Positions 3,846-64,000 of a DNA stretch of 64,000 bases are shown one piece after another. Positions within the stretch are counted from its first letter, which is position 1. The number at the start of each line of letters is the position of its first letter. Source of the stretch: Candidatus Babelota bacterium. GTDB lineage: Bacteria > Babelota > Babeliae > Babelales > RVW-14. The notes under the pieces were generated by a model. The model was not told the origin of the DNA. It did not search any database and saw only the letters and a program-made list of their open reading frames with translations. Where the stretch lies: assembly GCA_018266175.1 (NCBI GenBank), contig JAFEAY010000010.1, positions 53,942-117,941 on the forward strand, read 5' to 3'. Made by a program: the position numbers and the translations under genes.

Positions 3846-3969
3846 TATGGCAGTGGCTATTGGTAGCTGGTTGAGCTCTGGTTCTTATGGAAGCAGTTTT
3901 GGTAGCGGTAGTAGTGGGTATAATTGGTGATTATTGATTTTAATTATTGTTGATACAAGAATGAATAAA

Positions 3970-3997
3970 GGCCCCCAGGAATTACAACCCGGGGGCC
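3970..3997. repeat. GC-rich 28-bp palindromic hairpin element (ggcccccagg-aattacaa-cccgggggcc) followed by ttgaaatta; copy 1
   Basis: 10-bp GC stem (one mismatch) with 8-nt loop in an AT-rich context. A near-identical copy lies at 5509..5536. Sits between convergent genes, so it may also act as a bidirectional terminator. Confidence 0.7.
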
Positions 3998-4041
3998 TTG
4001 AAATTAGAATTATTTACTCTGTTGATGAGAAAATCGCTTTC

Positions 4042-5364
4042 CTAAATCATCGATGCCGGCAGAAAAAGTATTTTATTCTTTTCATCAAATGAAAGAGGCC
4101 CCATGTAACAAAAAACACCCAGCGATGCCTGAGGTGTAGCGGCCATAAAGCTTTTCAGATTATTGAATTTTTTCGTTTCAATCTGAGAAGAATAAGTAAT
4201 TTCGAATGGAATAATTCGCCTTCCAAGCGCAACAACAAAATCAACCTCAGCTCCCCCAGCAGTTCGCCAAAAATGAATTTGATGATTTTCTGATTGAGTA
4301 TCAAGCCACGTTTGTAACTCGTTAAGAAACCAGGTTTCAAGTCGATGACCTATCAATGCGGTACTTTTCAAAACGGTAATCTCATGAATACCAGTCAAGT
4401 AACTGACCAATCCGTTGTTAATCAAATAGCCCTTTGGTGATTTCACTAACCGCTTGATAGAACTTCTGATGTAAGGAAATAATTCAGTGTATTGCAGTGT
4501 GGCAAGTAAGTAGTCTCGATATTTTGAAAGGGTAGCTCTTGAGCAATGCAAGGCATCCATAATTTTTTTATCATCTCGAACAGATCCAGTAATTTCGGCA
4601 CAAATTTTCATCAGATTTTGATACATATTTAAATCGCCGATTGAATCAATAGCGCGAATGTCTTTTTCTAAATAAGTCTGCAAATAATCACCTAAATATT
4701 TTAAGCGCAACGATTCCGTTGCTGCCGCTATGACTTCTGGAAGGCCACCCCATACCAGATGGTTGTGTAATGATTCCTGCAAAATATTTTGAAAAGGACT
4801 CATCTGTACCATAAAATCTTTCAACGCTTGCACATCTTTTTCAGAAAAAATAAGGTCAAAGACATGGTGCGGTGGTAATGAAATTCCCTCATGCAAAAAA
4901 TGTGTCGTTTCTCTGAGGTTAAACTCACGCAAATTTAAAAGCTCAACTCTACCCGCTAAAGATTCTGCAGTTAATTTATGTAAATTAAGATGCGCTGATC
5001 CAGTAAGAAGAAATTTTATAGAGTCTCTCCCTTTATGGGTATCGTATATAATCTTTATTTGATCAAATAAAGCAGGGCATTTTTGTGCTTCATCAATAAA
5101 AACCCAGAGCTTTTTTTGCCCTCCAATTTTTTGAAGTGCAGCCTGCTCAATCATCAACTCAAGCTCTTCGGCTATAACTCTGTTTCTTTGGCTGAGCACG
5201 TCCATGTTCAAGTGAACCCACTTCTTCTCAGGATTAAGGTTCATGTAATATTCAAGCAGTGTTGTTTTTCCAACACGACGGGGGCCCAAAAGGGCACTGA
5301 TGAACGGCCGCTCAAACGACTCAAAAAGGAAGGCTTCATTAGCTCTTACAATGTATTTCTTCAT
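4042..5364 (-). CDS. AAA+ ATPase of the DUF4143/COG1373 type
   Basis: Walker A LLGPRRVGKTTLLEYY near the N-terminus, and DEAQ Walker B. Overall similarity to the 52595..53755 paralog. Start moved to the internal Met (MKKYIVRANEAF). Confidence 0.75.
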   Translation of the reverse strand: MKKYIVRANEAFLFESFERPFISALLGPRRVGKTTLLEYYMNLNPEKKWVHLNMDVLSQRNRVIAEELELMIEQAALQKIGGQKKLWVFIDEAQKCPALFDQIKIIYDTHKGRDSIKFLLTGSAHLNLHKLTAESLAGRVELLNLREFNLRETTHFLHEGISLPPHHVFDLIFSEKDVQALKDFMVQMSPFQNILQESLHNHLVWGGLPEVIAAATESLRLKYLGDYLQTYLEKDIRAIDSIGDLNMYQNLMKICAEITGSVRDDKKIMDALHCSRATLSKYRDYLLATLQYTELFPYIRSSIKRLVKSPKGYLINNGLVSYLTGIHEITVLKSTALIGHRLETWFLNELQTWLDTQSENHQIHFWRTAGGAEVDFVVALGRRIIPFEITYSSQIETKKFNNLKSFMAATPQASLGVFCYMGPLSFDEKNKILFLPASMI

Positions 5365-5508
5365 TTTTAAACTCAAAATAACGCTTTTGCATGACAAAAT
5401 TAACACCTTAATGTTAAAATTGCGACGCAAAAGTGTCAAGGCATTGTGAAAAAATCCTTCGGCGGGAGAAATTGCCTGGATAGACTTTTTTGGTCTATCA
5501 ATGAAATT

Positions 5509-5536
5509 GGCCCCCGGGTTGTAATTCCCGGGGGCC
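5509..5536. repeat. GC-rich palindromic hairpin element (ggcccccggg-ttgtaatt-cccgggggcc) flanked by TGAAATT direct repeats; copy 2
   Basis: Perfect 10-bp stem. The loop is the reverse complement of copy 1. Flanks: aaTGAAATT|hairpin|tTGAAATTa. Confidence 0.7.
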
Positions 5537-5555
5537 TTGAAATTAAAAACGTTTA

Positions 5556-7637
5556 TTATTTTTGTTTATCGAGTTCTTCTTTTAGATGATCCATGAGCGT
5601 CTTTTTAAAACCCATTTTAAGGCTATTTTTATGCTGATCATAAAATTCTTGGGCTTCTTCTTTAGCATTGTTATCAGCACGTGCAATAACTCTAAAATAA
5701 TTTTTTAAAATATTAGTATTCGAAGGATTACTAGAATCTGCGGCATAAGTTTTATGAGAAGCAGGATCAATTATAGTAAGCCGGTTTTCTCCTACCGGCA
5801 AGATAATTTGATGATCTTTAATTAATAGAAGACATCTCATAAGCTCTGCTACAACTTTAAGCTCATTAGTTTGCTGTATTCTTATGAACATATTCTGCAA
5901 TGTAGGTCCACTTGCAAGAATATTTCTGACAATCTTATCAGTATAACCTAGAAGCTCATTGAGCGATTTGTTAGAACGTAATTCGTTCGCATTAATATAC
6001 TGTAAAAGCCATCCAAGGTAATCAATAAATTTAAATGCTCTTACTCTTGCATCAGAATGCTTAGAAGCAGCATCAATAATGTCTTGATTACTATCTATCG
6101 CTGCAATCAACTTTATAACTTCAAGTAAGCCATTCAACTCAATCGATTGTTTTTCAACTACTTTAACTTCATCCTTAATTTCACTAATAGATTCATTAAA
6201 TAATCGATCCTCTTCTTCCTCACGTCGACGTTCATCTTCCTTACGAAGATTTTCTTCTTCTTCTTCTTTACGTTGACGACGTTCTTCTTCTTCTCGCTGA
6301 AAACGCTCTTGTGCTTCTTTTCGATCTTTTTCTTCAAGAGCAGCTAATCTTTTTTTCTCTTCTTCTAGGCGAATACGCTCTTTTTCTTCTAGCTGAAAAC
6401 GCTGTTCTTCTCGTTCACGTTGTTCATTCTCACGTCGCTTACGATCTTCTTCGTCACGCTGACGACGCACTTCTTTTTCATGACGCTTCTTAATACGAAT
6501 TACTTCTTGTTCGAGCCCTATTATCTCATCCATTAAAAATCGTGCATATAATGTTGCAAGAACTTCTGCTCGAACTTGTTGCCCTGTTAAACTATAACCC
6601 CTACCTAGATTTGCTTCAGTGAAAAAAACTTGATAGCTTACCCCATCTATAATTAATTCTTTTGCAGATTGCTTATCAGAAGGAATTGGCACAGCAGCTT
6701 CTCCTGGAAACCGTATTTTTTTACTGTTGGTATAATCTCTGCAAGCAAGCAAAATATTAGTTAAAGCATTTTGAGATGTGATTAAAGGCATTCTAAATTG
6801 CGTATGGCTCAATCCATTGAGAAGGTAATAAAGTGCCCCATCAAGCGAAGGCTGATATTGATTTTTAACTCCATGTCCTTGTCCGATATACCAGAGAATA
6901 GCTGTTGCAGCCCACCATAAAAAGTTTGGCTCGTAAAATCCATTTTCAAGAAGCGAAAATGCAAGGCGTGAGCCAGGACTTCTCCATCCAATTTTTGGAA
7001 GAATAGCTTTTAAAATTTCAGCATCTTGTTTTTGCCCATTTTCTATACAAGACTTTAAAACATCTGTATAAGACCTTATCGTATCCACTCCCACATCACT
7101 TGTGTCGTCAGAAATCCAACTAACAGCATGATGATAAGAATGTTGGTCTGCCAAAGATCTTTGCACTTTAAGAATTTTTGCATGGCTATACTTCTCAAGC
7201 AGGCTATTCACAAGCTTCTCACAAGCACTTTTAATCACCTGAATTGCTTGTTCAATATTTTGAGCATCAATATTTCTTAATGCATCTCGGTTATGACCAT
7301 CAATAAGAGAACTTCTAAATACTTTAACCTCGTTGACTAGATCAGCATCTTGCTGGGAAATATCATGCTCAAGAGTATTAAGTATTTCATTTACTTTTTG
7401 ACTAAAATTTCGATAATCAATTTTGGGTTCAATTTTTATCTCTTCAATCTCAACAGCATCACCGCGTAGATGCTGTGAAATAGCCTCAAGCCCATTCTTC
7501 AAGGCTTCAAGCTTAGCCCTCAACTGAACAAGGTTTTGATGCAATCCTTGAATGCGGTCGCTCAACTCATCAGCCGCCAGTGAGCATACCAAGCTCATGG
7601 TTATTGCCATTAAAAATATTTTACCATACTGCTTCAT
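5556..7637 (-). CDS. Secreted protein with an N-terminal conserved leucine-heptad module and a central E/R/K-rich charged single alpha-helix region
   Basis: Signal peptide MKQYGKIFLMAITMSLVCSLAA. Motif LHQNLVQLRAKLEALKNGL is shared with the 7686..9872 protein. ~110 aa of RRQRDEEDRKRRENEQREREEQ... residues. AGAGGAG ribosome-binding site upstream. Confidence 0.6.
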   Translation of the reverse strand: MKQYGKIFLMAITMSLVCSLAADELSDRIQGLHQNLVQLRAKLEALKNGLEAISQHLRGDAVEIEEIKIEPKIDYRNFSQKVNEILNTLEHDISQQDADLVNEVKVFRSSLIDGHNRDALRNIDAQNIEQAIQVIKSACEKLVNSLLEKYSHAKILKVQRSLADQHSYHHAVSWISDDTSDVGVDTIRSYTDVLKSCIENGQKQDAEILKAILPKIGWRSPGSRLAFSLLENGFYEPNFLWWAATAILWYIGQGHGVKNQYQPSLDGALYYLLNGLSHTQFRMPLITSQNALTNILLACRDYTNSKKIRFPGEAAVPIPSDKQSAKELIIDGVSYQVFFTEANLGRGYSLTGQQVRAEVLATLYARFLMDEIIGLEQEVIRIKKRHEKEVRRQRDEEDRKRRENEQREREEQRFQLEEKERIRLEEEKKRLAALEEKDRKEAQERFQREEEERRQRKEEEEENLRKEDERRREEEEDRLFNESISEIKDEVKVVEKQSIELNGLLEVIKLIAAIDSNQDIIDAASKHSDARVRAFKFIDYLGWLLQYINANELRSNKSLNELLGYTDKIVRNILASGPTLQNMFIRIQQTNELKVVAELMRCLLLIKDHQIILPVGENRLTIIDPASHKTYAADSSNPSNTNILKNYFRVIARADNNAKEEAQEFYDQHKNSLKMGFKKTLMDHLKEELDKQK

Positions 7638-7685
7638 ACCAACTCCTCTATAAATCAGTTATTTTTATACGCCCCAATTACTCAC

Positions 7686-9872
7686 TTAATTACTCGGTTT
7701 ATATTTCTCAACAAACTTCTCTTGATTGGAATCAATCGATGGATGTCGGATTGTTCTGAGATAATCAATCGCTTGTCGTGGCGACATCCCGTGCCGTGCA
7801 ATCAACCACACCGCAAGCATTGTTCCAGTACGACTTTGGCCAAACTGACAATGAACAACCGCCCTTTTTTTTGTCTTATGCGCTTGGTCAACCGCTTGCA
7901 AAAATTCTTGAATTTGAGCAGGTTCTGGTGTATCGCCACTTGGAATATAAAGAAATTTATCAACAACACTTGTTTGACCTTGTTTGCCCAATGTACCAGG
8001 CCACCAAGCTTCGTTATTTAAATCTTTATTTAACGAAACTATCAAGCCAATCCCCAACCATTCAAGCATTTTTATATCACGAGTACTGGCTGGCTGCTGC
8101 ATGCCGGCAAGAAGCTGAGGTGCAACCCAGGAAAAATTTTGTGTTGCAAGCCTGAATGCAAGTACCGCATCAAGCGCATGAAAATCATGACCCTGCTCTC
8201 GTAAATAATTAAGCGCTTCAAGGCATTGATCTATAAAATGAGTATATTTAAGATCTTTTTGATAAAGATGATTAAATTCTCGCTCTTTTTGTTGGTTCGT
8301 AAATGGACAAACGTCATAAATAAATTGAGTTAACGTTGCTGGCAGCTGTACCGGCTTAAGGGCTTGATATGCTTTTTTAAACAGATCAAGCGTTGGTTGC
8401 CGAGTAATTAAATCATGCGCTTGGTTTGCAAAAAATTGCTCCGCAAGAGCTTGAGCGTCTGGAACTGTACCTAAGCTGAGTGGCACATACAAAGCAGACA
8501 AACTGGTTGCATTTGCTTTGGTCAGGGCATCACCACGCGTCAGGCTATAGCCACCAACACTATCAATTATTTTTTTAACTTGATCTTTTAAATCGATAAT
8601 ACTTCCTGCTGCCTGTAGGATCACCTTAAGCTCGGTGCTTGCACCAAGACCAAATCTCCCCCAGCTTCCACGACGGGCAAAAAAGTCAGCATGCTGCTCA
8701 ATCAGGTTCAGCAAACCCACCCACGTTACTTGGCTGAACGTTTCATACCGCTTGTCTTTGACTATTTTTTGTACAATATTTTGAATCAGCCCTCCGCGAA
8801 AACTGCTCACCGCGCAAACTTTTTTTACCGGATCTTGAGTAACATCTTGATCGTACACATCGAGTTCATGCTCAGTTAACGTTTTGTAATCAGGGATAAC
8901 GACTTCGTCAGGGGTTTTGGCAAAGTCTATTGGTGATGGCGTATGACAGGCTTTAAAATAAAAAAGATCGGCTTGTGCTGCGTACTCTGGTTTTTGGAAA
9001 AATCGCTTGATGATTTCAAAAACTTTTTGCCAATCATTATTCCCGTCATCACTGGCCTTAATCACATCAAGGGCTTTTGTTAAAAAAAAGTTCGGGCGTT
9101 GACCATTCAGTGAACTATCCAAAATATAGCCTTTTAAACGCTCCACCAAGTTTGTATCTTTTATGATTTTTTTGAGTGCATCAAAAGCTTCACCGCTTTT
9201 TTTCATCACTGGACCCGCAACTATTTTTTCTTTGCCAGCAGAATCCGTAACTTTTTGTGTAAGACCTCCCGTTGCTTGAGCAAGTAATAAAGTAATTTTG
9301 GCCAGAACATCAAGCTGGGAGCTGTACCACTGATTCTCTTGAAATGGCCAAGCAAAGGTAACACCGTTATGGTCGATGCTCATAACCGCGCCACTTACAT
9401 CCATCAGTGCTGCAATCATCTGCGCATAGTCGGCAACTTTTTCCCAACGAGCATATTCGTTAGGGCCTGAATAGTGAATGGTAATGACGCCTTGCTTGGC
9501 AGCTCGATTGTGCTTAAATTCAAGCGTTGCTTGAGTTCCAGGCGTTAACTGATAGGTAATAGTTTGAGAAAATTCACCGGTTGTATCATCAAAAACATCG
9601 GAAGCTAGAGTAACCGTAACACCATCAACTTTAAGGTTAATAAACTTTTTAATGTTACTTGCAACAAAATAAGGAGCTTTGCCTTGATTCAAATTTTCGT
9701 AAATAGAGATTAGACCATTTTGAAGCGCTTGCAGCTTGTGCTTGAGGCTTGTCAAAGAGGCATGCAGATCTGCAAGCTTTGTAGGAAGGTCATCGGCAGC
9801 AGTCAGCGTGGGGCTGCATGCAAGGGTTATAAGAAAGAGTGTGGTGAGAACAGACTCATAGAGCTTGGCCAT
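7686..9872 (-). CDS. Secreted effector-like protein with a C-terminal dual-specificity (Cys-based) protein phosphatase domain
   Basis: Signal peptide followed by the shared module LHASLTSLKHKLQALQNGL. C-terminal motif VHCQFGQSRTG (CX5R P-loop) with an upstream Asp. NEYARWEKVADY module shared with the 90..3845 protein. Start set at MAKLYES, which has an AGGAGA ribosome-binding site. Confidence 0.65.
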   Translation of the reverse strand: MAKLYESVLTTLFLITLACSPTLTAADDLPTKLADLHASLTSLKHKLQALQNGLISIYENLNQGKAPYFVASNIKKFINLKVDGVTVTLASDVFDDTTGEFSQTITYQLTPGTQATLEFKHNRAAKQGVITIHYSGPNEYARWEKVADYAQMIAALMDVSGAVMSIDHNGVTFAWPFQENQWYSSQLDVLAKITLLLAQATGGLTQKVTDSAGKEKIVAGPVMKKSGEAFDALKKIIKDTNLVERLKGYILDSSLNGQRPNFFLTKALDVIKASDDGNNDWQKVFEIIKRFFQKPEYAAQADLFYFKACHTPSPIDFAKTPDEVVIPDYKTLTEHELDVYDQDVTQDPVKKVCAVSSFRGGLIQNIVQKIVKDKRYETFSQVTWVGLLNLIEQHADFFARRGSWGRFGLGASTELKVILQAAGSIIDLKDQVKKIIDSVGGYSLTRGDALTKANATSLSALYVPLSLGTVPDAQALAEQFFANQAHDLITRQPTLDLFKKAYQALKPVQLPATLTQFIYDVCPFTNQQKEREFNHLYQKDLKYTHFIDQCLEALNYLREQGHDFHALDAVLAFRLATQNFSWVAPQLLAGMQQPASTRDIKMLEWLGIGLIVSLNKDLNNEAWWPGTLGKQGQTSVVDKFLYIPSGDTPEPAQIQEFLQAVDQAHKTKKRAVVHCQFGQSRTGTMLAVWLIARHGMSPRQAIDYLRTIRHPSIDSNQEKFVEKYKPSN

Positions 9873-55811: not shown

Positions 55812-56513
55812 TTACCGAATTAAGCGAACAAAGAACTGCACAATCGCAATAACTAAATCATAAAAGGCCCCAAAGATACCTTCAACTGCATCCAAAATTC
55901 CACGCTGAACGCTTTGCTTTTTTGCTTGCTTGGAAAATTCAACTTGCTGCTCAAGAGCTTTCTGATTCAACTCTTTAGTTGATTCTTTTTTAACTTTTGA
56001 TGTCTTGGGTGGTTTGACACCTGATTCAATAACTAACTTGGTGAGCTTACTGAAAAGCCACGCACGTTCAATTTGTGTTGCTTCTTCAACACCGCAAATT
56101 ACAATATTTTTAGGAATAAGCAGATTATCAACAGTTGCTCCATTATTAGTCGTAATACTTGCCAGTGTGAATTCTTGGTCACTAAAACGCTTGCTTTGAA
56201 AAATAGGTTTGATGATGCGAATTTCTTTTACTTTAGAAAGCTTAAGCTGCATAATTGAATCATCTTTTTCTGAGCGTATTCCACCAATAGATGTTCTACC
56301 AGAAAATGAGATATCTTTAATCGTAAGAGCAGTGTTATCGTCATAAATTTTCACAACATAACTTCCCTGCCCCTCTTCCAGTGGAACAAACTTAGGTTCT
56401 AAGACCCCACTGGTCCGCACAGCCCCCTCACCAAAAGCCTGCAGCCCTAACCCTTGAGATAAACAAAAAATAGATACCAGCATCAGATGTGATGCATATC
56501 GTGCAGTTATCAT
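55812..56513 (-). CDS. Secreted hypothetical protein
   Basis: Signal peptide. Confidence 0.4.
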   Translation of the reverse strand: MITARYASHLMLVSIFCLSQGLGLQAFGEGAVRTSGVLEPKFVPLEEGQGSYVVKIYDDNTALTIKDISFSGRTSIGGIRSEKDDSIMQLKLSKVKEIRIIKPIFQSKRFSDQEFTLASITTNNGATVDNLLIPKNIVICGVEEATQIERAWLFSKLTKLVIESGVKPPKTSKVKKESTKELNQKALEQQVEFSKQAKKQSVQRGILDAVEGIFGAFYDLVIAIVQFFVRLIR

Positions 56514-56778
56514 CCTATTTCTCCTATTTTCTTTTCAAAAGCACTTGATACGTTATAGCTTGTACTATAGCCATAGAGACAGAAGAATTACAAGCATTTA
56601 TACCTCTACTTGCGCTCATGGCTTAAGCACAAGCCATGCATCTTCTTGTGAGCAAAATATTTCACATTGAATATACACATTCGCTTTTAGTTGACATTTG
56701 GGTATAATCCCAAATACTAAACGATACTTAGATGAAAATTTTTTATAAAAAAGCGACCCGTCACATATGAGGTGTTTA

Positions 56779-57618
56779 ATGAATCAGCATTTTTCTTTTA
56801 TACTGGCACAAACACTGAGCCTATTTTTTGTGTGTGAGCTTGGAGCGCAAATCACAGGTATTCCTTCTTCAAATAACGCTGTAATATCTGATGCATTAAA
56901 ACCTGTTGTTATCCAAGAACAAACAAATACAACAGCAATACTCCCTCTCTCCCCACTTGTTTTTGCACAAGAAGTTAACTTGAGAGACAAACTCACTCCA
57001 TTATTGTCTTGCTTAGGACATAATGAACTACAAAAGCTTTCTCCAGAAATACTCGATTATTTAAATCGGATAGCAAGCATTGAGGTTATTGTTGCAAGCT
57101 ATCTTTTAGTACTCACACTCAAAAGCATCATTCATTGCCAAATAAGTCAGCCAGTACCAACACGCTCACCATACAGCTCACTTGATACCTATGAAACAAA
57201 TGCTACCACTGCTCAAGATTTGACCATGAACGACGTAGAACAAAAAATATCAATCGCTGAAATTATCGATCTCCTTGAGCATGTTCAACAAGACTTAGCT
57301 CGTATTGAAGAACTTGATCGCCATGATAAAAAAGAGATTATGAATATTTTACTTGATCGCCAACAGCAGCTTCAACGTAAACTTAAACAACTCGGAATTC
57401 TCCACTATTCATCACAATCATCGCTTTGGAATTCTTCTTTGCCTTGGGCAGTTGCAGGTCTTTTCTTGGGCCTAACCATACTCACCGTTGCTCTTGCAAG
57501 CATCGATTCAGACACTGCTCAGACGACAGTACAATTTCCATCTGTTGATCTATTAGCTAAGAATTTAGGGTATAGACAACAGCCAGCACCTGTGCCAGTA
57601 CCAGATCCTGCAGTCTAG
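56779..57618 (+). CDS. Hypothetical secreted/membrane protein (C-terminal TM)
   Basis: GAGGTG ribosome-binding site. Signal peptide and C-terminal hydrophobic helix. Confidence 0.4.
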   Translation: MNQHFSFILAQTLSLFFVCELGAQITGIPSSNNAVISDALKPVVIQEQTNTTAILPLSPLVFAQEVNLRDKLTPLLSCLGHNELQKLSPEILDYLNRIASIEVIVASYLLVLTLKSIIHCQISQPVPTRSPYSSLDTYETNATTAQDLTMNDVEQKISIAEIIDLLEHVQQDLARIEELDRHDKKEIMNILLDRQQQLQRKLKQLGILHYSSQSSLWNSSLPWAVAGLFLGLTILTVALASIDSDTAQTTVQFPSVDLLAKNLGYRQQPAPVPVPDPAV

Positions 57619-57628
57619 ACTAAAACGG

Positions 57629-58105
57629 TTACTTGTGCTCGATCATTTTAGTCGTAAAAGCATAAACAAGATCAAGTTTGCACCATGCAGGAATGAGCTC
57701 AGTAAGTGGTTCTGGTAAAAGATTTATGGAACTAAGACTTTCAAGCGGAGCCCAAGCAAATGCAACATGCTCTTCTTTTTGAGCAGGTATTACACCGGCT
57801 TTAAGTTCGGGTGATGTTGCAAGAAATAAGAAATTATACTCATGGGTATGACACACTCGAGCTCCCAGATTGGGTTGAAATGAATATTCTAAGCAACCCA
57901 CAAATCTTTGTAGTGTAAAAGCAATCCCCATCTCTTCATCAAGCTCACGTAGTACAGTCTGCTGCGCGCTTTCTCCATGTTCAATATGCCCACCAGGCAG
58001 ATAGTAGTGCCCTTGCTTCCAGCTTGGGTGATGAGCCAGCAAAATATGTCCTTGGTCAATAATAACAGCACGGGCAAGCGTGTGAATGTTTGTATTTTCG
58101 CTCAT
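57629..58105 (-). CDS. Nudix hydrolase
   Basis: Nudix box GGHIEHGESAQQTVLRELDEEMGI. Confidence 0.85.
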   Translation of the reverse strand: MSENTNIHTLARAVIIDQGHILLAHHPSWKQGHYYLPGGHIEHGESAQQTVLRELDEEMGIAFTLQRFVGCLEYSFQPNLGARVCHTHEYNFLFLATSPELKAGVIPAQKEEHVAFAWAPLESLSSINLLPEPLTELIPAWCKLDLVYAFTTKMIEHK

Positions 58106-58122
58106 GAAATTCTTTTTTTATT

Positions 58123-58722
58123 TTATGGTGTTTCTATCTTTTTCAAAAGCACGTAAGCTTCTTTAACTTTTTTCTCACGCTCAATCTTCCAACTCACGGT
58201 AATCTCAGGTCGTGAAGCATTCGGGTTTGCAGCTACAAAGCGCTGAATAAAACTCAAGTAGGCCCATTCTTGCTTGGGGCATATTGTATTCGCTTTTCGT
58301 GCTTCTTCCCAAAAATCTGCAAATTCTTGATACGTTGGTGGTTTACCCTCAAGCCATCGCGCCCTGATCCAATCGTGCCCAACCGCAGTAAAGTGGAAGT
58401 GCTCGCCAATGAACTTTTTAAAAAAGAGACGTGTCGCCAAGTCGTTTTTATGACTGCCGTATAAAATCAAGCTTTCTGGTTTGAGCAACACAACTTGATG
58501 CTTTTTTGCTCGAGAAATGTCGGGGATTACAGGCTCCGCTAAAATTTTTCCAGTTTCTATAAAATGCATAATTCGGGCAATAATGGCAGCTTTCATACCC
58601 GCATGAGGAAGCTTGAGAGCTAAACAGACATGTTTAAGCTCAGCCATGCTCATGTAATGCTGCGCATCATTAAGAGCTTGTTGATCATGCTTGCTTAAAA
58701 GTGGAAACTTTTTCATTATCAA
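58123..58722 (-). CDS. SAP-domain-containing hypothetical protein
   Basis: N-terminal MSMAELKHVCLALKLPHAGMKAAIIARIMHF fits the SAP bihelical motif. The rest is uncharacterised. Confidence 0.5.
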   Translation of the reverse strand: MIMKKFPLLSKHDQQALNDAQHYMSMAELKHVCLALKLPHAGMKAAIIARIMHFIETGKILAEPVIPDISRAKKHQVVLLKPESLILYGSHKNDLATRLFFKKFIGEHFHFTAVGHDWIRARWLEGKPPTYQEFADFWEEARKANTICPKQEWAYLSFIQRFVAANPNASRPEITVSWKIEREKKVKEAYVLLKKIETP

Positions 58723-59117
58723 ATACTCAGTGTATTTTCAACTTTTTGAAGAGCTTGTTCTAAGATAGGATAATACAGTTTAATGTGTGCATAAATTTCA
58801 TCTGCAAGGTTTTCATCATAAGTATGCGACGTCAAGTTTCGGTCTCTTAACATTTTAAGCCACATCTTGTCATCGTCGATGAGCCCACCAGCATACGCTT
58901 CCTGCAAAACATCTTTAGGATATCTTACCTCAACACCTTTTGCTTCTAAAATGCGTTTTAACAGTTTCCAGAAAAGCTCAATCGTAAATTCAAATCGTTG
59001 AATCGATGCATCAATATTTCCTCGATCTTCATCCATGGGCTTACGGACCATGACACCAAGTGCTTGTAGGGCTTTTTTTGCCTGTTGCAAAGATTGTTCT
59101 ATGCGACTGTCTCTCAT
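58719..59117 (-). CDS. Nucleotidyltransferase substrate-binding protein, HI0074 family (HEPN fold)
   Basis: FEFTIELFWKLLKRILEAKGV...RDRNLTSHTYDE. 4-nt overlap with the upstream NTase gene. Confidence 0.8.
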   Translation of the reverse strand: MRDSRIEQSLQQAKKALQALGVMVRKPMDEDRGNIDASIQRFEFTIELFWKLLKRILEAKGVEVRYPKDVLQEAYAGGLIDDDKMWLKMLRDRNLTSHTYDENLADEIYAHIKLYYPILEQALQKVENTLSI

Positions 59118-59440
59118 TTTTTTTCCTTTTGATAAAGAATCACCCCATCAGAAACTATAGACTTTTTCAATGGATTATTATCGGCAAGTCGATCAAACCT
59201 CACGCAATCAATTTTAAGCAAAGTATCCGCCTTATCAACAAGATCAAGTACTAAATACCAATCATCATCGCTTGCTTGAGGACAGACAACTGCAAGGTCT
59301 ATATCAGATCTATTCTTATGATCTCCACGAGCTCGAGAGCCATAAAGATAAATTATTTCGATAAACGGAAGCTTAGTTAAATCTTTAAAAAATTGTAACG
59401 ATCTAATTTCTTCTTGATAAGAGGTCATACTATTCCTCAA
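59114..59440 (-). CDS. Minimal nucleotidyltransferase, HI0073-like
   Basis: LYGSRARGDHKNRSDIDLAVV nucleotidyltransferase motif. Confidence 0.8.
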   Translation of the reverse strand: MRNSMTSYQEEIRSLQFFKDLTKLPFIEIIYLYGSRARGDHKNRSDIDLAVVCPQASDDDWYLVLDLVDKADTLLKIDCVRFDRLADNNPLKKSIVSDGVILYQKEKK

Positions 59441-59852
59441 TAATCTCAGGATATTTCTGAGGTTGCGCTAAACAATATTCAACACCAAAACTTCCCTCTG
59501 GATGTTCCGCTTTTTCAACAAAGATACGATTTGAAAAACCACCCCGCTCATTGTATCTTTTCGCCTGAGCATGGGCTATCTGTTCAGACGTAATGCCATG
59601 CAAAATACAAAGAGCTTCAACAACATCAAGGACATCGGCAAGCTCTGCAATAAGCTCCTCACCAGATTGTGCTTCAACCACTTCTTGGGCTTCTTCTACT
59701 AACTTAAGCTGAAGCTGTTGGCTGTACTGGGCATCGTCAAGTCGTCTCCAATGCATAACAGAGCCATGTTTCTCCATCTTTTCAACCGCTTTATCGCGCC
59801 ATAACTTATTTTGATAAAATGTTCGCATTTTCATGAGATAATCCTTATTCAT
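59430..59852 (-). CDS. MazG-like all-alpha nucleoside triphosphate pyrophosphohydrolase
   Basis: LVEEAQEVVEA...EELIAELADVLDVVEAL (EExxE...ExxxD metal-binding pattern). Confidence 0.7.
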   Translation of the reverse strand: MNKDYLMKMRTFYQNKLWRDKAVEKMEKHGSVMHWRRLDDAQYSQQLQLKLVEEAQEVVEAQSGEELIAELADVLDVVEALCILHGITSEQIAHAQAKRYNERGGFSNRIFVEKAEHPEGSFGVEYCLAQPQKYPEIIEE

Positions 59853-60141
59853 CTCTTTATCAATTTCCTGTTCTTACGCAGAGCATACAGCAACTAAAAA
59901 TTTGGAAAAGGGGAAGCCTGTAATAAGCAATTTTGCTCTTAATTGAGTCATAGATTTTTAGATGATGCGCTTGAACGATTGCAATTTAGACCAATGATAT
60001 GCTCTTTTCAGCACAGGAATTTCGCTTATAAAAGGGATCACAAAATCACCATCTTGCGCTTCTACTATTGTTTTTTAACTTTATCAAACTAGACTTGCTA
60101 TCAAAACGCAAATAATAGTATTTTCATTGCAGGAATCGTTT

Positions 60142-60444
60142 ATGCAAATCAAATGCCGTAACAAAAAATGTGGTCGACTCATGGGTGTGAGAGAATTTTT
60201 AGTGTATGTTTCTTGCCACCTTGGGAAATTCGTTTTGCCAAGCCTTGTACCGTTAATAGTTGCCAAGCTTAAAGAATACTGGGAAACACCAACAAAGGGT
60301 TGGATCGACGAGTCTATGACTGCATATGCAAATTTTATGTCTCTGACTTGCCCTGGCTGCAAAAAAATGAAATGGGATCCTTATCCTTGTGATTCTAAAG
60401 ACGAAATACAAAAAAACTACCTCAAAGATGATAGCAAAAAATAA
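60142..60444 (+). CDS. Small Cys-containing hypothetical protein (CxxC...CPGC)
   Basis: AGGAA ribosome-binding site. Preferred over the overlapping antisense ORF 60084..60362. Confidence 0.35.
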   Translation: MQIKCRNKKCGRLMGVREFLVYVSCHLGKFVLPSLVPLIVAKLKEYWETPTKGWIDESMTAYANFMSLTCPGCKKMKWDPYPCDSKDEIQKNYLKDDSKK

Positions 60445-60480
60445 TCCTGTAGAGTAGTAAGTTTAAGGCGAAGGTAGAAT

Positions 60481-60945
60481 ATGAAGTTCTTAAAAGTCAT
60501 TACAACCTTTTTGTTTATTACGTATTCACATGTCCATTGCTTGGATAATACTATACCTAATAAGGCAGCAACGCCAACCAGTGAGGAAACTGCCCAACTT
60601 GATCGATTCAGTATCTTTACAACGTATTTGGACAAACTTAAAAGTGCTGCAATAGAATTTGATAATAAACAAGGTAAGGCATGTCCGAAACTTCAATGCA
60701 TGCAATGCAAAAAAGAAAAAATCACATGGGCATACGTTCATGGACATCTTATTGGATCGAGCATGAAATCTATTGCGAATGAAGTAGAATTCAACAAAAT
60801 GAAAAACGTCATGGACGAATTTATAACAGTACTGGCACAATCAGATCTGCAAAAGATTTCAAATTGTATGCTTCAGATTGCACAAGATCTTAAAATTCCA
60901 TGCATTAATTGTAATGCATCATCCTGGAAAATAACTTCTCAATAA
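60481..60945 (+). CDS. Secreted Cys-containing hypothetical protein
   Basis: Signal peptide. CxxC pairs (CMQC, CINC). Confidence 0.4.
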   Translation: MKFLKVITTFLFITYSHVHCLDNTIPNKAATPTSEETAQLDRFSIFTTYLDKLKSAAIEFDNKQGKACPKLQCMQCKKEKITWAYVHGHLIGSSMKSIANEVEFNKMKNVMDEFITVLAQSDLQKISNCMLQIAQDLKIPCINCNASSWKITSQ

Positions 60946-61097
60946 TTAAAAAACAACCTTTGAGTAGCGCAATCACTATACCCTAAATCATCCACACGGG
61001 AAAAAAAAGAATCCTTTTTTTTCTTCAAAATCAAGCAGCCCCATATAGCAAAAAAAACATACTGAAAGTTGCAAGTGAAAACCTGATATTGCTTGAA

Positions 61098-61433
61098 TCA
61101 ATGAAGTTTCATTCCATTTGGTACTTTTGAGTCAACGGTTACCAAGCAAATAGCACCCTGCTCATCTGAAAAACCAACCAAAAGAAATTGTGAAAGAAAT
61201 CCTGCAATGTTTTTTTCTCCCAAGTTAACACAACCAACAATTGACTTACCAACCAATGATTCGGGAGTGTAATGTACCGTCACTTGAGCTGACGTTTGAA
61301 GCACGCCAATGTCAGGACCAAAATCTGCCCATACTTTGTAAGCAGGCTTTTTTGCGCGTAAGAACTCTTCAACTTTGATTACGGTACCCGAGCGTAAATC
61401 AACTTTCTCGAAATCTTCATACGAAATTGGCAT
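61098..61433 (-). CDS. csaA: tRNA-binding-domain protein (CsaA/YgjH-like)
   Basis: ISYEDFEKVDLRSGTVIKVEEF...VGCVNLGEKNIAGFLSQ. GGAAGGGA ribosome-binding site before the internal Met. Confidence 0.75.
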   Translation of the reverse strand: MPISYEDFEKVDLRSGTVIKVEEFLRAKKPAYKVWADFGPDIGVLQTSAQVTVHYTPESLVGKSIVGCVNLGEKNIAGFLSQFLLVGFSDEQGAICLVTVDSKVPNGMKLH

Positions 61434-61592
61434 ATTTGTCCCTTCCATGAACGGTTTTACTTTTTTGATTGATCACGCACGCAGTAAGGTATCAAAGATC
61501 TTTGGGGATCACAATCCAATTTTTGAGTTCTTATTATTTTCGAAAATAAAGCTCCATGCACACATAATCCAGTCAGCAATTCTGATAAAACT

Positions 61593-62291
61593 TCAGCAAA
61601 GCAAATATAACTGCCTCTGATTTTCGGGAAATTTTTCAATCGCATAGCGCAGCATCGTTCGGGGCATATGGCGCGCATGCTTATCAAGGAATGCGATAAG
61701 TTTACTTTGATTCTTTTTCCCCGCTTCACGCAGCATCCAACCAACTGCTTTGTGAATGAGGTCATGCGTATCTTGTAATAAGATTACAGCGAGTTTAAAC
61801 GTATCTTCTAGATCGTTATGACGAATGAAATACCATGTTGAAACTATTGCAATACGGCGCGCCCACATGAGCTCTGATTGTGCAAGCGAAAAGAGTATTG
61901 CCCTATCACGCTTGAGTAAATGTGCTCCAATAATCAAATGCGCTGAAGCGTCGACAAGGTTCCAGTTATTTACCCGCTTCAAATTGCTCACGTAAAATTG
62001 ATACAGCTCATCTTTTAAATTGTCTTTTGCTTTTTGATACTGCCCGACCAAAATAAATAAGGCGAGAAGCCGTTCTTCATTGATTGGTGAGTCAAACAAA
62101 ACTTGTATTTCAGATAAAGATAAGTTGTTATAACTTTTGGCAATTATCCGTAATGTTGGAACCTTCACGCCAATAAATTGATCATGCTCCGCATAGTGCC
62201 CAACACCTGTTTTAAAAAAAGCTGAATGCCGTTCCTTGGGAATGCTAATCGATTGTTGCAGAAGATTTTTTATAGCGATTATATTGGTCAT
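61593..62291 (-). CDS. alkD: DNA alkylation repair protein (AlkD/AlkC-like HEAT-repeat glycosylase)
   Basis: All-helical, ~230 aa. 4-nt overlap with ogt. Typical N-terminal block ...FFKTGVGHYAEHDQFIGVKVPTLR. Confidence 0.7.
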   Translation of the reverse strand: MTNIIAIKNLLQQSISIPKERHSAFFKTGVGHYAEHDQFIGVKVPTLRIIAKSYNNLSLSEIQVLFDSPINEERLLALFILVGQYQKAKDNLKDELYQFYVSNLKRVNNWNLVDASAHLIIGAHLLKRDRAILFSLAQSELMWARRIAIVSTWYFIRHNDLEDTFKLAVILLQDTHDLIHKAVGWMLREAGKKNQSKLIAFLDKHARHMPRTMLRYAIEKFPENQRQLYLLC

Positions 62292-62920
62292 TTATTTTTT
62301 CTTTCATGCTCAAGAAGCCATGTTTTACGACCAATACCACCACCATATCCACCTAATTTTCCATCACTATTAATAATGCGGTGGCATGGAATCACGATAG
62401 CAATTTGATTAGCTCCATTGGCATTGGCGACAGCTCGACTTGCTGATGGCTTACCAATCTGAATTGCTTGCGCTAAATAACTTCTCGTCTCTCCATATGG
62501 AATGAGCGTTAACATCTCCCAAGCAAGTTTTTGAAATGGACTTCCCAAAAGAAATATTGGTGTTTCAAAAATTTTTAGCGTACCGTCAAAGTATAACTTA
62601 AGCTCTCTTTGGATAGAAGTAATTGGATCTGTAGTTCCAGCGATAATAGCAGACTTCGTTGTGATACACAGCCTTTCTACCTCTCGCTCGAGACCTCGAC
62701 ATTCAAGAAATTCCAAGAGGTATAGAAACCGTTCATCGGCAATTGCAAGCATTGGACCAAGCGGCGTGTCTAACGAAGATGCCTTAAGAATATTAGTATG
62801 CTTGCCAAAATGCGTGGGTACTGCTCTAATAATTTTAGAAAATGCATCACTCAATCCGCTTCTTGATTCATACCCAGCGTTCACCCGATAAAATTCATGC
62901 TTTTTTTCTTCTGATAACAT
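62288..62920 (-). CDS. ogt: Methylated-DNA-protein-cysteine methyltransferase
   Basis: Active site IPCHRIINSDGKLGGYGGG. Confidence 0.85.
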   Translation of the reverse strand: MLSEEKKHEFYRVNAGYESRSGLSDAFSKIIRAVPTHFGKHTNILKASSLDTPLGPMLAIADERFLYLLEFLECRGLEREVERLCITTKSAIIAGTTDPITSIQRELKLYFDGTLKIFETPIFLLGSPFQKLAWEMLTLIPYGETRSYLAQAIQIGKPSASRAVANANGANQIAIVIPCHRIINSDGKLGGYGGGIGRKTWLLEHERKNK

Positions 62921-63029
62921 TTTGGCCCCGCGCGACAGCGATTTGTAATTTTAATATTATGATGTTCATCATTATAACGCATTTATTAGAACATGCGGCT
63001 GAAAATCAGGCACTGATTTTAATTAACGC

Positions 63030-64000
63030 GAACTCGATAATTAAAAGCCATTGATTTGTGCTACAGGACAAGCATAAATTGATGGCTTTCTAGAATCAAA
63101 CTTATAAGCGCATAACGTCGCAAGTAAATGTCCAAGAAAATTATCTTTTGATCGATGCCGAGAGTGTTCTAAATGATAGGATTCTTTGAGCTTTGAAAAT
63201 ACAGATTCTATCACTGCTCGCTTTCGTAAAAGCATTTTTTCTTCAAAATCCATAAGCTTATTTTTCATATTTTTTCTAATTTTTGTAATCAATTTGATCC
63301 CCTTGTTCCAGAGATTTTTGAAATTTTTTGTCGAAAGATATCCTCGATCACCAACGAGTTTACCTGTTAATCCTGTTGTTAATTTGTCTATAACTTTTTC
63401 GTTGGCGTCGTGGATATTGCCGGGTGTTAAGTAAAAACTAACAATTTCCCCGTACATGTTGATAATCAGGTGAAGCTTCATTCCGAAAAACCACCCCGTA
63501 GATGTTTTTCCCTTTTGCGAAAATCCATCAAATACTTTGTGGCTTGATGCTCTATAAATGTTGCATACTTCGTATGAAGTTGAGTCGATAAAATTTACTG
63601 GCGTTGGCTTTCCTAAGCATCTTGAACAAAGAAATCCCAATATTTCCTGCAGCATTTTTCCGATTAACTCAAGGATCTATTATAGCTCACCACGCAATCA
63701 AAAGCTGATTTTAACCACCCTAAGACATCCATTTCATAGTAATCTTTGAATGTTGAGCGCTTAGAAAAATTATAAAAAATAAGAATTGTTATCGCATCAG
63801 CTTTTGTCATTTTTTGTTTTCTGCCGAGGTTTTTTTGCTCTTCACGGGCCAATATTCGACTTCTAAAATCAGCTTTTTTTAAAAAATCATAAACTTCACA
63901 AAAAATTTTTGTTAACATCATTACGCTTCCCTTTCTTGTTTGAGGTTGTGATTATCCTCTAGGGAAGCATATTTTTTTTGTTTTTCAAATTATCGAGTTC
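63030..64000 (-). mobile_element. IS982-family insertion sequence, truncated by the window end; terminal inverted repeat GAACTCGATAATT at 63030..63042 and 63988..64000
   Basis: 13-bp inverted repeats at both ends. The internal transposase carries DSTxxxC...GWFFGMKLHLIIN...TPGNIHD...GDRGY...EHSRHRS. Confidence 0.75.
63041..63921 (-). pseudogene. IS982-family DDE transposase split by a frameshift into two ORFs (63664..63921 and 63041..63655)
   Basis: The N-terminal 85-aa ORF and the C-terminal 204-aa ORF are in different frames, separated by a stop codon. Confidence 0.7.

Follow-up and report, generated by a model that had tools for sequence, protein, structure and literature searches.

The locus described here raises the question of whether five tightly packed genes encode the components of one functional module or are neighbors of separate origin and function. 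The genes are found in the window, i.e., the entire 64,000-nucleotide stretch of a Candidatus Babelota contig that was analyzed, and encode a MazG-like NTP pyrophosphohydrolase, a minimal nucleotidyltransferase (NTase), an HI0074-type HEPN protein, a SAP-domain protein and a Nudix hydrolase (Table 1). The evidence discussed below indicates that three independent units have probably come to lie side by side in this lineage, at a variable spot of the Dependentiae chromosome; it does not support a functional module of five components.

Table 1. Genes and ORFs of the cluster and its surroundings (positions in the window)
Feature	Position	Strand	Details
MazG-like NTP pyrophosphohydrolase	59430-59852	minus	140-aa ORF; probable start 59834, giving 134 aa
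Minimal nucleotidyltransferase (NTase; MNT/MntA-like)	ORF 59114-59440; ATG start 59428	minus	104 aa from ATG
HI0074-type HEPN (HepT-like)	58719-59117	minus	132 aa
SAP + DUF6434 protein	ORF 58123-58722; ATG start 58716	minus	197 aa
Nudix hydrolase	57629-58105	minus	158 aa
alkD	61593-62291	minus	PF08713 DNA_alkylation, on the identical gene in contig L081
ogt	62288-62920	minus	TIGR00589, 1e-30
IS982-family transposase ORF	63041-63655	minus	NF033520, 8.5e-55; model positions 68-241 of 243 only
ORF just upstream of the IS982 ORF	63664-63921	minus	85 aa; no family match

An earlier note on this DNA described five co-oriented genes of these families, separated by overlaps of 11, 4 and 4 nt and one 17-nt gap. 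The ORFs are found exactly at the minus-strand coordinates of Table 1 and profile searches uphold each family. The 17-nt gap and one of the 4-nt overlaps also stand; the 11-nt overlap and the other 4-nt overlap, which are seen between the longest ORFs, depend on TTG starts. Database gene calls and the N-termini of the respective families favor the ATG starts of the NTase and SAP genes and, probably, the later start of the MazG-like gene. With these starts the spacings from MazG to Nudix are +1, -4 (ATGA), +2 and +17 nt, i.e., the cluster remains very compact, and because the five genes are so tightly packed they are probably co-transcribed. Shine-Dalgarno-like sequences precede the starts of the NTase (GAGGAA) and HEPN (AAGGA) genes. 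A terminator scan revealed no terminator-like hairpin between the five genes, and a promoter scan gave no more promoter-like matches in the cluster region than expected from shuffled sequence; as neither count exceeds that of shuffled sequence, the scans are uninformative on internal promoters. An Rfam scan of positions 56000-64000 gave no RNA family.

The NTase and HEPN genes are best read as a putative class I HEPN/MNT (HepT/MntA, type VII) toxin-antitoxin (TA) pair, and the TA-like character proposed earlier is borne out by HI0074 models, motifs and solved toxin and antitoxin homologues. The NTase matches the Polbeta/NTP_transf_2 profile (6.8e-16), its GSX10DXD motif reads GSRARGDHKNRSDIDL, and the closest solved chains include the MntA/MNT antitoxins 5yep, 7ae2 and 8xeh. 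The HEPN protein scores 124 bits against TIGR01987 (HI0074; 2.9e-36, cut-off 55.8 bits) and also matches PF08780 (NTase_sub_bind, 1e-31); its PDB matches are 1wty (4e-25), the L. pneumophila HEPN toxin 8xdj (1e-16) and HI0074 itself (1jog, 2e-11). The RX4HXY motif, in which the Tyr is the AMP acceptor (PMC11586414), reads RNLTSHTY, and HEPN residues Q40 and E43 fall, when aligned, on Q44 and E47, which are catalytic in the Legionella toxin (AMPylation and the function of these residues are described in PMC11586414 and PMC7641770). The HEPN ATG overlaps the NTase stop codon (ATGA, 59114-59117) downstream of the AAGGA sequence, i.e., the genes are adjacent, co-directional and arranged for translational coupling. 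By analogy with characterized homologues, the NTase would AMPylate the Tyr of the HEPN RX4HXY motif and thereby keep an RNase toxin switched off. Because the scores against the MntA_antitoxin model NF047752 (54.7 bits, 7.7e-15) and the HepT equivalog NF047751 (20.4 bits) both fall short of their 60-bit cut-offs, profile scoring places the pair in the HI0074 subfamily and not in the strict MntA/HepT equivalog.

In comparison with known type VII systems (Shewanella SO_3165/3166, Aphanizomenon HEPN-MNT, Legionella pneumophila HEPN-MNT and the founding HI0073/HI0074), the window pair displays the same small GSX10DXD MNT upstream of an overlapping ~130-aa RX4HXY HEPN, the homology to solved toxins and antitoxins, and the Q and E residues of the Legionella catalytic site. 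It differs in being embedded in a longer co-oriented cluster instead of a two-gene operon. The pair is also kept in the related loci L001 and L088. In contrast, HEPN copies without an NTase (L086, L108 and L157) carry an E-to-K substitution at the position that matches E47 of the Legionella toxin (Fisher p = 0.048), as would be expected if an unguarded toxin becomes inactivated. This coincidence of NTase loss and substitution at the presumed catalytic site constitutes a natural experiment that supports the TA logic for the HI0074 subfamily.

The MazG-like protein scores just above the Pfam cut-offs for PRA-PH (2.7e-5, 24.9 bits) and MazG (7.8e-5, 23.3 bits). Both the EExxE...ExxD metal-binding motif and the helical-bundle fold of the all-alpha NTP pyrophosphohydrolase superfamily are present, and E53, E54, E57, E70 and D73 are invariant in an alignment of 40 homologues, for which the JGI label is "house-cleaning noncanonical NTP pyrophosphatase". 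The best fold matches of the AF2 model (pLDDT 94) are HisE, MazG, YpjD and RS21-C6 (1y6x, 1yvw, 1vmg, 2gta, 2oig), at probabilities of up to 1.0 and weak E-values, i.e., the fold is like that of nucleotide-pool sanitation enzymes (DCTPP1/RS21-C6, YpjD and other all-alpha NTP-PPases). At both termini the family has additional conserved segments that these solved relatives lack (N-terminal KLWRDK; C-terminal GGF...EHP.GSFG..YCL..P.KYPE). Identity with HisE, which the earlier note had named beforehand as a possible refutation, is rejected by the score against TIGR03188 (20.4 bits; cut-off 42.7 bits), and no his genes are located nearby. The many sub-threshold repeat matches to TAL effectors, the only matches in PDB sequence and profile searches, are spurious.

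The neighbors of this protein in other genomes are informative. Among 80 MazG-anchored loci, ogt is found in 9 (immediately adjacent in 7), alkD in 3 and a Nudix gene in 12 (immediately adjacent in 5), and the ogt/alkD linkage extends over at least 7 lineages outside the window clade, with MazG proteins that are at most 70% identical between lineages. Rough P values are about 1e-11 for ogt/alkD beside MazG and, from a binomial test, 4e-12 for ogt and 5e-4 for Nudix; the null model assumes gene copy numbers, and accessory islands inflate all co-occurrence counts. These recurrent partners, i.e., ogt, alkD and Nudix, point to damage sanitation, not defense. The association resembles a combination of nucleotide-pool sanitation with Ogt/AlkD repair, and ogt and alkD flank the window cluster too.

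The Nudix hydrolase of the window matches PF00293 (2.2e-18) and has an intact Nudix box (GX5EX7REUXEEXGU), which reads GGHIEHGESAQQTVLRELDEEMGI. The closest solved chains are the CTP pyrophosphohydrolase 2rrk and MutT-type proteins, and the score stays under the cut-off of every specific equivalog model (MutT, NudG, RppH and others); in sequence it recalls the MutT/MTH1 sanitation enzymes that act beside Ogt/AlkD. MTH1, itself a Nudix enzyme, clears O6-methyl-dGTP by hydrolysis (PMC7152754). In related genomes the Nudix gene belongs to a syntenic backbone together with genes for a 283-aa protein, a 233-aa protein and DUF885. The MazG-like and Nudix proteins would thus make up a second unit of house-cleaning pyrophosphohydrolases, which with ogt and alkD may define a DNA- and nucleotide-damage sanitation neighborhood; their substrates would be aberrant (d)NTPs, e.g., alkylated or oxidized ones. 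The multi-lineage and statistically strong linkage of the MazG-like house-cleaning family to ogt, alkD and Nudix suggests a substrate hypothesis in which damaged, possibly alkylated, (d)NTPs are hydrolyzed. The more specific proposal, of a pyrophosphatase family devoted to alkylated (d)NTPs and coupled genetically to Ogt/AlkD, is less likely than not.

The SAP protein, when translated from its ATG (two codons into the 199-aa ORF), matches a deposited Dependentiae protein at 100% identity, and a profile search reveals a SAP domain and a weak DUF6434 match. It is predicted to bind DNA. The family is well conserved and confidently modeled, and a search of the literature for DUF6434 returned nothing. 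Comparison with phage, plasmid and PHROGs collections did not link the protein to mobile elements in any meaningful way. The SAP gene has no fixed partner in 79 distant genomes, where GNAT, CPT, APH, Cass2 and TetR genes are its immediate neighbors; MazG is nearby in 3 of these loci, each time within 2 kb (P ~1e-3), and HEPN in 3, in two of which it adjoins SAP (P ~0.04), frequencies that are slightly above a crude null. The third unit would therefore be a stand-alone gene for a DNA-binding protein that circulates among intracellular and host-associated bacteria. Like the linkage of MazG to ogt, alkD and Nudix and the natural experiment on NTase loss, the recognition of SAP/DUF6434 as a conserved family common to intracellular bacteria of several phyla is a by-product of modest value.

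A direct view of how the cluster holds together is given by the same locus in related genomes. The complete five-gene order is found in the same-species contigs L081-L085 only. In L086, where the SAP protein is 83% identical to that of the window, an in-frame deletion of ~290 bp removes the NTase, such that MazG is followed directly by an NTase-less HEPN (an arrangement also seen in the unrelated lineage L157), and an opposite-strand gene is located between SAP and Nudix. L001 (69% identical) has the order ogt-NTase-HEPN-SAP-Nudix without MazG, and L088 has neither MazG nor Nudix. A gene for a 680-aa ankyrin protein separates SAP from Nudix in L087. In L089 a different HEPN family is found upstream of MazG-ogt-SAP, and an IS200 element precedes Nudix. 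Hence, the expectation that MazG-NTase-HEPN-SAP-Nudix recurs across genomes did not hold: close relatives lose the NTase, lack MazG or have SAP and Nudix split apart.

One adjacency that survives most of these rearrangements is that of HEPN and SAP: five lineages of the clade (the window, L086, L088, L001 and probably L087) retain it, with a gap or overlap of 0-2 nt. A clade-restricted three-gene system, in which the HEPN/MNT pair has SAP/DUF6434 as an additional component, e.g., a DNA-binding regulator or co-effector, would account for this order and for the adjoining HEPN and SAP genes of the distant loci L017 and L033. However, the general synteny, i.e., the backbone of 283-aa, 233-aa and DUF885 genes, is also conserved at 69-83% identity, and the adjacency may for that reason simply have been inherited. 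Furthermore, HEPN and NTase genes are absent from the 6 kb around 76 of the 79 distant SAP genes, SAP follows ogt in L089, and the characterized type VII TA systems need two genes only (PMC7641770, PMC11586414). A three-gene system is therefore considered improbable.

The earlier note saw in the cluster a composite module for defense or stress: MazG and Nudix would modulate HEPN/NTase by breaking down nucleotides or by clearing what the NTase makes, with SAP as a DNA-binding component. The compact, co-oriented arrangement is in line with this proposal, and the tight packing implies co-expression and is compatible with functional coupling, which counts against the three-unit reading. The catalytic motifs are also intact in all proteins, and MazG-HEPN, MazG-NTase and MazG-Nudix adjacencies occur occasionally elsewhere (L157, L117, L146, L126). 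A search of PADLOC-DB v2 yielded generic, family-level matches to the single-gene candidates PDC-S09 (NTase, 1e-12), PDC-S07 (Nudix, 6e-14) and PDC-M05A, but any MNT or Nudix protein is expected to match PDC-S09 or PDC-S07 at such a level; MazG, HEPN and SAP gave no matches in this database, and no defined multi-gene system was recovered. A literature search on the combined families, distinct from that on DUF6434, returned a general survey but no description of the gene order, in agreement with the earlier statement that it is not a described system.

Against a five-gene module stands, above all, that the set is confined to one species, an outcome that the earlier note itself had named as refuting its proposal: it is found at none of the 79 distant SAP loci and none of the 80 MazG loci, which also hold no SAP gene at all, as scanned with HMMs that were built from local matches and that very divergent NTases could escape. 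Single members are lost in close relatives while the rest are retained, inserted or opposite-strand genes split off Nudix in L086, L087 and L089, and the Nudix proteins encoded beside MazG elsewhere are just 24-34% identical to that of the window. In chemical terms, a Nudix or MazG enzyme would find no pyrophosphate bond to cleave in Tyr-AMP or oligo-AMP linkages. A defense-island setting is rejected as well, as the neighbors are repair, housekeeping, ankyrin and unfamiliar genes, with no recognized defense genes nearby. The composite module is thus very unlikely. Likewise highly unlikely is that the HEPN/MNT pair recruited its neighbors into an extended type VII system in the Dependentiae clade, where SAP would be a DNA-binding third component and the MazG-like and/or Nudix proteins would tune the supply of nucleotides on which AMPylation draws, or replace the NTase (cf. 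MazG-HEPN in L086 and L157). As a lead to a defense system the locus carries little weight, and because the sole demonstrable system is a standard (putative) HEPN/MNT TA pair, the cluster does not merit pursuit as a novel system of several genes.

A precedent for linking MazG to a TA pair is the E. coli mazE-mazF-mazG operon, where the pair is co-transcribed with the MazG NTP pyrophosphatase. In the window, too, a TA pair probably shares its transcription unit with the gene for an all-alpha NTP pyrophosphohydrolase, but the TA family is MazEF in E. coli and HEPN/MNT here, mazG is located downstream there and upstream here, the E. coli enzyme has tandem domains whereas that of the window is a single-domain protein of ~134 aa, and the MazG-TA linkage is not conserved here. 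That MazG acts in a corresponding manner, i.e., lowers ATP or an alarmone to tune NTase-dependent neutralization, or partners HEPN where the NTase is missing, would fit its position immediately upstream of the TA pair and the NTase-less MazG-HEPN loci L086 and L157, but is very unlikely given that an HI0074-type HEPN occupies just 1 of 123 MazG neighbor slots (P = 0.22), that the dominant MazG partners are ogt, alkD and Nudix, and that the E-to-K substitution in the NTase-less HEPNs suggests inactivation, not a new partnership.

In the juxtaposition of three units, the HEPN/MNT pair would have been inserted into the sanitation neighborhood. The accessory setting beside ogt-alkD and an IS982 element, as noted earlier, was confirmed by identification of ogt, alkD and the IS982 transposase ORF (Table 1), and a CsaA-like tRNA-binding gene is also found in this neighborhood. 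The N-terminal ~67 residues of the family model have no counterpart in the transposase ORF, which together with the 85-aa ORF just upstream may represent one split or frameshifted gene.

Compared with known HEPN/MNT toxin–antitoxin (TA) modules, the cluster at 57629–59852 is best read as containing an HI0074-type pair, lodged among house-cleaning genes. An earlier note on this DNA had described five co-oriented open reading frames, all of which were recovered at exactly the claimed coordinates, and profile searches upheld the family proposed for each gene (see table). The 11-nt and one of the 4-nt overlaps described there stem from TTG starts in the longest ORFs. Deposited gene calls on identical DNA and conserved family N-termini favor ATG starts for the NTase (59428) and SAP (58716) genes, and the MazG-like gene probably starts at the ATG at 59834. 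The intergenic spacings with ATG starts are +1, −4 (ATGA), +2 and +17 nt, i.e., the cluster is very compact even so. The NTase and HEPN genes are each preceded by SD-like sequences, the intergenic stretches of the cluster contain no terminator-like hairpin, and no Rfam families are present in 56000–64000. Promoter-like matches in the cluster are no more numerous than the shuffled expectation and thus uninformative.

Features of the cluster, its surroundings and related loci (L-numbers, loci in other genomes, contigs or metagenomes)
Feature	Position	Strand	Matches or remarks
MazG-like ORF	59430–59852	−	PRA-PH 2.7e-5, MazG 7.8e-5
NTase ORF	59114–59440	−	Polbeta 6.8e-16, NTP_transf_2 2.5e-8
HEPN ORF	58719–59117	−	NTase_sub_bind 1e-31, TIGR01987 (HI0074 subfamily) 2.9e-36
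SAP ORF	58123–58722	−	SAP_new25 2.5e-8, SAP 9e-6, DUF6434 weak
Nudix ORF	57629–58105	−	NUDIX 2.2e-18
ogt	62288–62920		with alkD, 1.7 kb upstream of MazG gene
alkD	61593–62291		with ogt, 1.7 kb upstream of MazG gene
IS982-family transposase ORF with the 85-aa ORF upstream	63041–63921		transposase ORF 204 aa
Two small Cys-rich ORFs	60127–60945	+	105 aa and 154 aa
L086 HEPN	2904–3338		
L108 HEPN	387–860		
L157 HEPN	1269–1715		
L088 HEPN	5228–5626		
L089 locus	2785–6740		
L108 TA-like genes	953–1644		HigB/RelE-like killer, HTH antitoxin
L107 TA-like gene	1187–1501		HicB-like
L146 locus	4563–8622		4 kb

The NTase bears the GSX10DXD signature (GSRARGDHKNRSDIDL), and the solved structures nearest to it include the MntA/MNT antitoxins 5yep, 7ae2 and 8xeh. 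Homologues of the HEPN protein among solved structures are TTHA0048 (1wty, 4e-25), a Legionella pneumophila HEPN toxin (8xdj, 1e-16) and HI0074 (1jog). Its RX4HXY motif reads RNLTSHTY, and the retained residues Q40 and E43 correspond in the alignment to Legionella Q44 and E47; in the Legionella toxin these two residues are needed for RNase activity and the Tyr of the RX4HXY motif is the AMP acceptor (PMC11586414; see also PMC7641770). At the level of sequence, the NTase–HEPN pair shows all the features that define class I HEPN/MNT (type VII) modules. It falls short of the strict equivalog cut-offs for MntA and HepT and is therefore filed under the HI0074/HI0073 subfamily.

The MazG-like protein scores barely over the Pfam cut-offs for both PRA-PH and MazG. 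Residues E53, E54, E57, E70 and D73 are invariant among 40 homologues, for which the JGI name is [quoted passage not shown], and the top fold matches of the confident AF2 model (pLDDT 94) are HisE, MazG, YpjD, AF1178 and RS21-C6. A PDB search by sequence found no solved relative, and TAL-effector matches were discarded as summed sub-threshold repeat matches. HisE, which the earlier note had named as the identity that would speak against its own proposal, was rejected at 20 bits versus a cut-off of 42.7 bits.

All five genes are identical in five same-species contigs (L081–L085). In clade relatives the downstream backbone (Nudix, 283-aa, 233-aa and DUF885 genes) remains syntenic while the five-gene block breaks up. 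In L086 (SAP 83% identical) an in-frame deletion of ~290 bp leaves 11 codons from the NTase start fused to HEPN, and a 203-aa gene on the opposite strand separates SAP from Nudix; in L087 the latter two are kept apart by a 680-aa ankyrin gene plus one further gene. The order in L001 (69%) is ogt-NTase-HEPN-SAP-(150 nt)-Nudix, with MazG absent, while in L088 NTase-HEPN-SAP is followed by unrelated genes, with MazG and Nudix absent. The L089 locus reads GNAT, NTase, HEPN (PF05168), MazG, ogt, SAP, IS200 (opposite strand), Nudix, where ogt is directly upstream of SAP, as part of the cluster as in L001, and the IS200-type Y1 transposase gene precedes a fragmented Nudix gene. This HEPN/MNT pair belongs to a different HEPN family and sits in another slot of the locus, as expected of mobile TA cassettes entering a permissive region. 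By appearance, the L089 locus is a hotspot for small insertions.

Iteratively built HMMs were applied to 80 species-level genomes with a SAP/DUF6434 homologue (Dependentiae, Chlamydiota, Rickettsiales, Legionellales/Coxiellaceae and others). The complete five-gene set was found in none of the 79 distant genomes; near SAP, MazG occurs in 3/79, HI0074-type HEPN in 3/79 and Nudix genes (0.85–5.5 kb away, either strand) in 7/79. The immediate SAP neighbours vary, i.e., they encode GNAT acetyltransferases (13), chloramphenicol-phosphotransferase-like proteins (5), APH, alpha/beta-hydrolases, Cass2/GyrI-like proteins or TetR regulators. In 80 metagenome loci with a MazG-like gene as the anchor, SAP genes are absent, while four loci have HEPN and five NTase. 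Because distant SAP loci and MazG loci are without the set, the five genes stand together as a juxtaposition at the species level and not as a recurrent module. The composite module proposed in the earlier note has no conserved order outside the species, and a lack of co-localisation in other genomes is what the note itself had named as refuting it.

In the same 80 MazG-anchored loci, ogt is the most consistent neighbour (9 loci, immediately adjacent in 7); Nudix genes occur in 12 (5 immediately adjacent) and alkD in 3. Under a crude null (1–2 ogt and 8–15 Nudix genes per 1500 genes, 123 neighbour slots), P is ~4e-12 to 5e-10 for ogt–MazG adjacency and 5e-4 to 8e-3 for Nudix–MazG adjacency, while HEPN–MazG adjacency does not reach significance (P = 0.22). 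The ogt/alkD-linked MazG genes represent at least 7 lineages outside the clade of the window, with ≤70% identity between them, and ogt is found upstream, downstream or divergent relative to MazG, so that repeated selection for linkage is favored over shared ancestry. Because the MazG-ogt/alkD/Nudix linkage recurs, the flanking enzymes fit a theme of nucleotide-pool and DNA-damage sanitation, and a role of the MazG-like family in clearing damaged, possibly alkylated, nucleotides is suggested; MTH1, a Nudix enzyme that hydrolyses O6-methyl-dGTP (PMC7152754), provides a precedent. Loci with ogt and/or alkD linked to MazG were seen in the window (59430–59852 with 61593–62920) and in L100, L101, L107, L108, L109, L116, L137, L144, L156 and L158. 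TA-like genes adjoin ogt/alkD-MazG in L108 and L107, i.e., in distant genomes TA cassettes repeatedly lodge near the repair/sanitation cluster. At the L146 locus NTP-pyrophosphatase genes are unusually dense: three MazG-like paralogues lie together with one Nudix gene, and a small NTase gene is encoded on the opposite strand.

In HEPNs without an NTase (L086, L108 and L157), Lys replaces the catalytic Glu in 3/3, the segments being THRFKL or QRFKY versus IQRFEF; the L086 protein also carries Q-to-H at the position of Legionella Q44 in addition to Lys at that of E47. The Glu is kept in 5/6 distinct NTase-paired copies, the counter-example being L123, with K at this site yet an NTase present. 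The NTase-paired HEPN of L088 has H-to-Y within the RX4H motif. Fisher's exact test for NTase absence versus Lys gives p 0.048, from very small numbers. The substitutions in NTase-less HEPNs support the prediction of a real toxin–antitoxin logic.

The reading that we consider fairly probable, inferred enzyme functions included, is that of a TA pair among sanitation genes. By analogy with characterised homologues, the NTase would AMPylate the HEPN Tyr, silencing the RNase toxin, while the MazG-like and Nudix proteins would hydrolyse aberrant (d)NTPs, aiding Ogt/AlkD repair, and the SAP protein may bind DNA. The link between NTase/HEPN activity and nucleotide degradation put forward in the earlier note is not supported. 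In chemical terms, a Nudix or MazG enzyme would find no pyrophosphate bond in a Tyr-AMP or oligo-AMP linkage. A clade-restricted three-gene system of HEPN/MNT and SAP, to which the HEPN–SAP adjacency kept in five clade lineages would point, is unlikely given the distant-genome data and the E-to-K exchange in unguarded HEPNs. The same two observations weaken a five-gene composite module, which is more doubtful still despite the tight packing. They also make mazEF-mazG-like modulation or a MazG–HEPN partnership the least probable reading, even with two independent MazG–HEPN pairs without NTase (L086, L157).

PADLOC, proposed as a check for prior classification, returned only family-level matches, to PDC-S09 and PDC-S07, which are single-gene candidates. 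The ogt-alkD and IS982 neighbourhood was found as described. The cluster is not in a defence island, because it is surrounded by genes for repair, housekeeping and ankyrin proteins, by unknown genes and by an incomplete IS982 ORF.

By-products of note are the linkage of MazG with ogt/alkD, the natural variants that have lost the NTase and the widely shared, uncharacterised SAP/DUF6434 family. The SAP protein matches a deposited Candidatus Dependentiae bacterium protein with 100% identity. Its model is confident (pLDDT 91.6), and structural relatives (DEK, PIAS1, Ku70, FAN1, SLX4, Rho-N) match the N-terminal SAP domain only; the structural search gave no interpretable match for the conserved DUF6434 part, and a literature search found no paper mentioning DUF6434. 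The family (58123–58716; L001–L080) has the invariant core YKND..TR..F..LIG.HFH.T..G.DW...RW..G.PPTY..F...W and occurs in Dependentiae/Babeliales, Chlamydiota, Rickettsiales (including Midichloriaceae and Megaera), Legionellales/Coxiellaceae and some Verrucomicrobia and Bdellovibrionota MAGs. Its conservation, with 44–55% identity, in intracellular or host-associated bacteria of several phyla suggests horizontal sharing; PHROGs, phage and plasmid searches with the SAP protein gave no link to mobile elements. The Nudix protein has a canonical Nudix box and reaches no equivalog cut-offs; its nearest structures are CTP pyrophosphohydrolase and MutT-type.

The IS982 ORF lacks the N-terminal ~67 residues, since it matches only model positions 68–241 of 243. 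An 85-aa ORF directly upstream has no family match, and the element is possibly frameshifted or split. The two plus-strand ORFs between the csaA-like and MazG genes have no NCBIfam match; the 154-aa one has a signal-peptide-like N-terminus, and both are also called in the identical contigs L081–L085.
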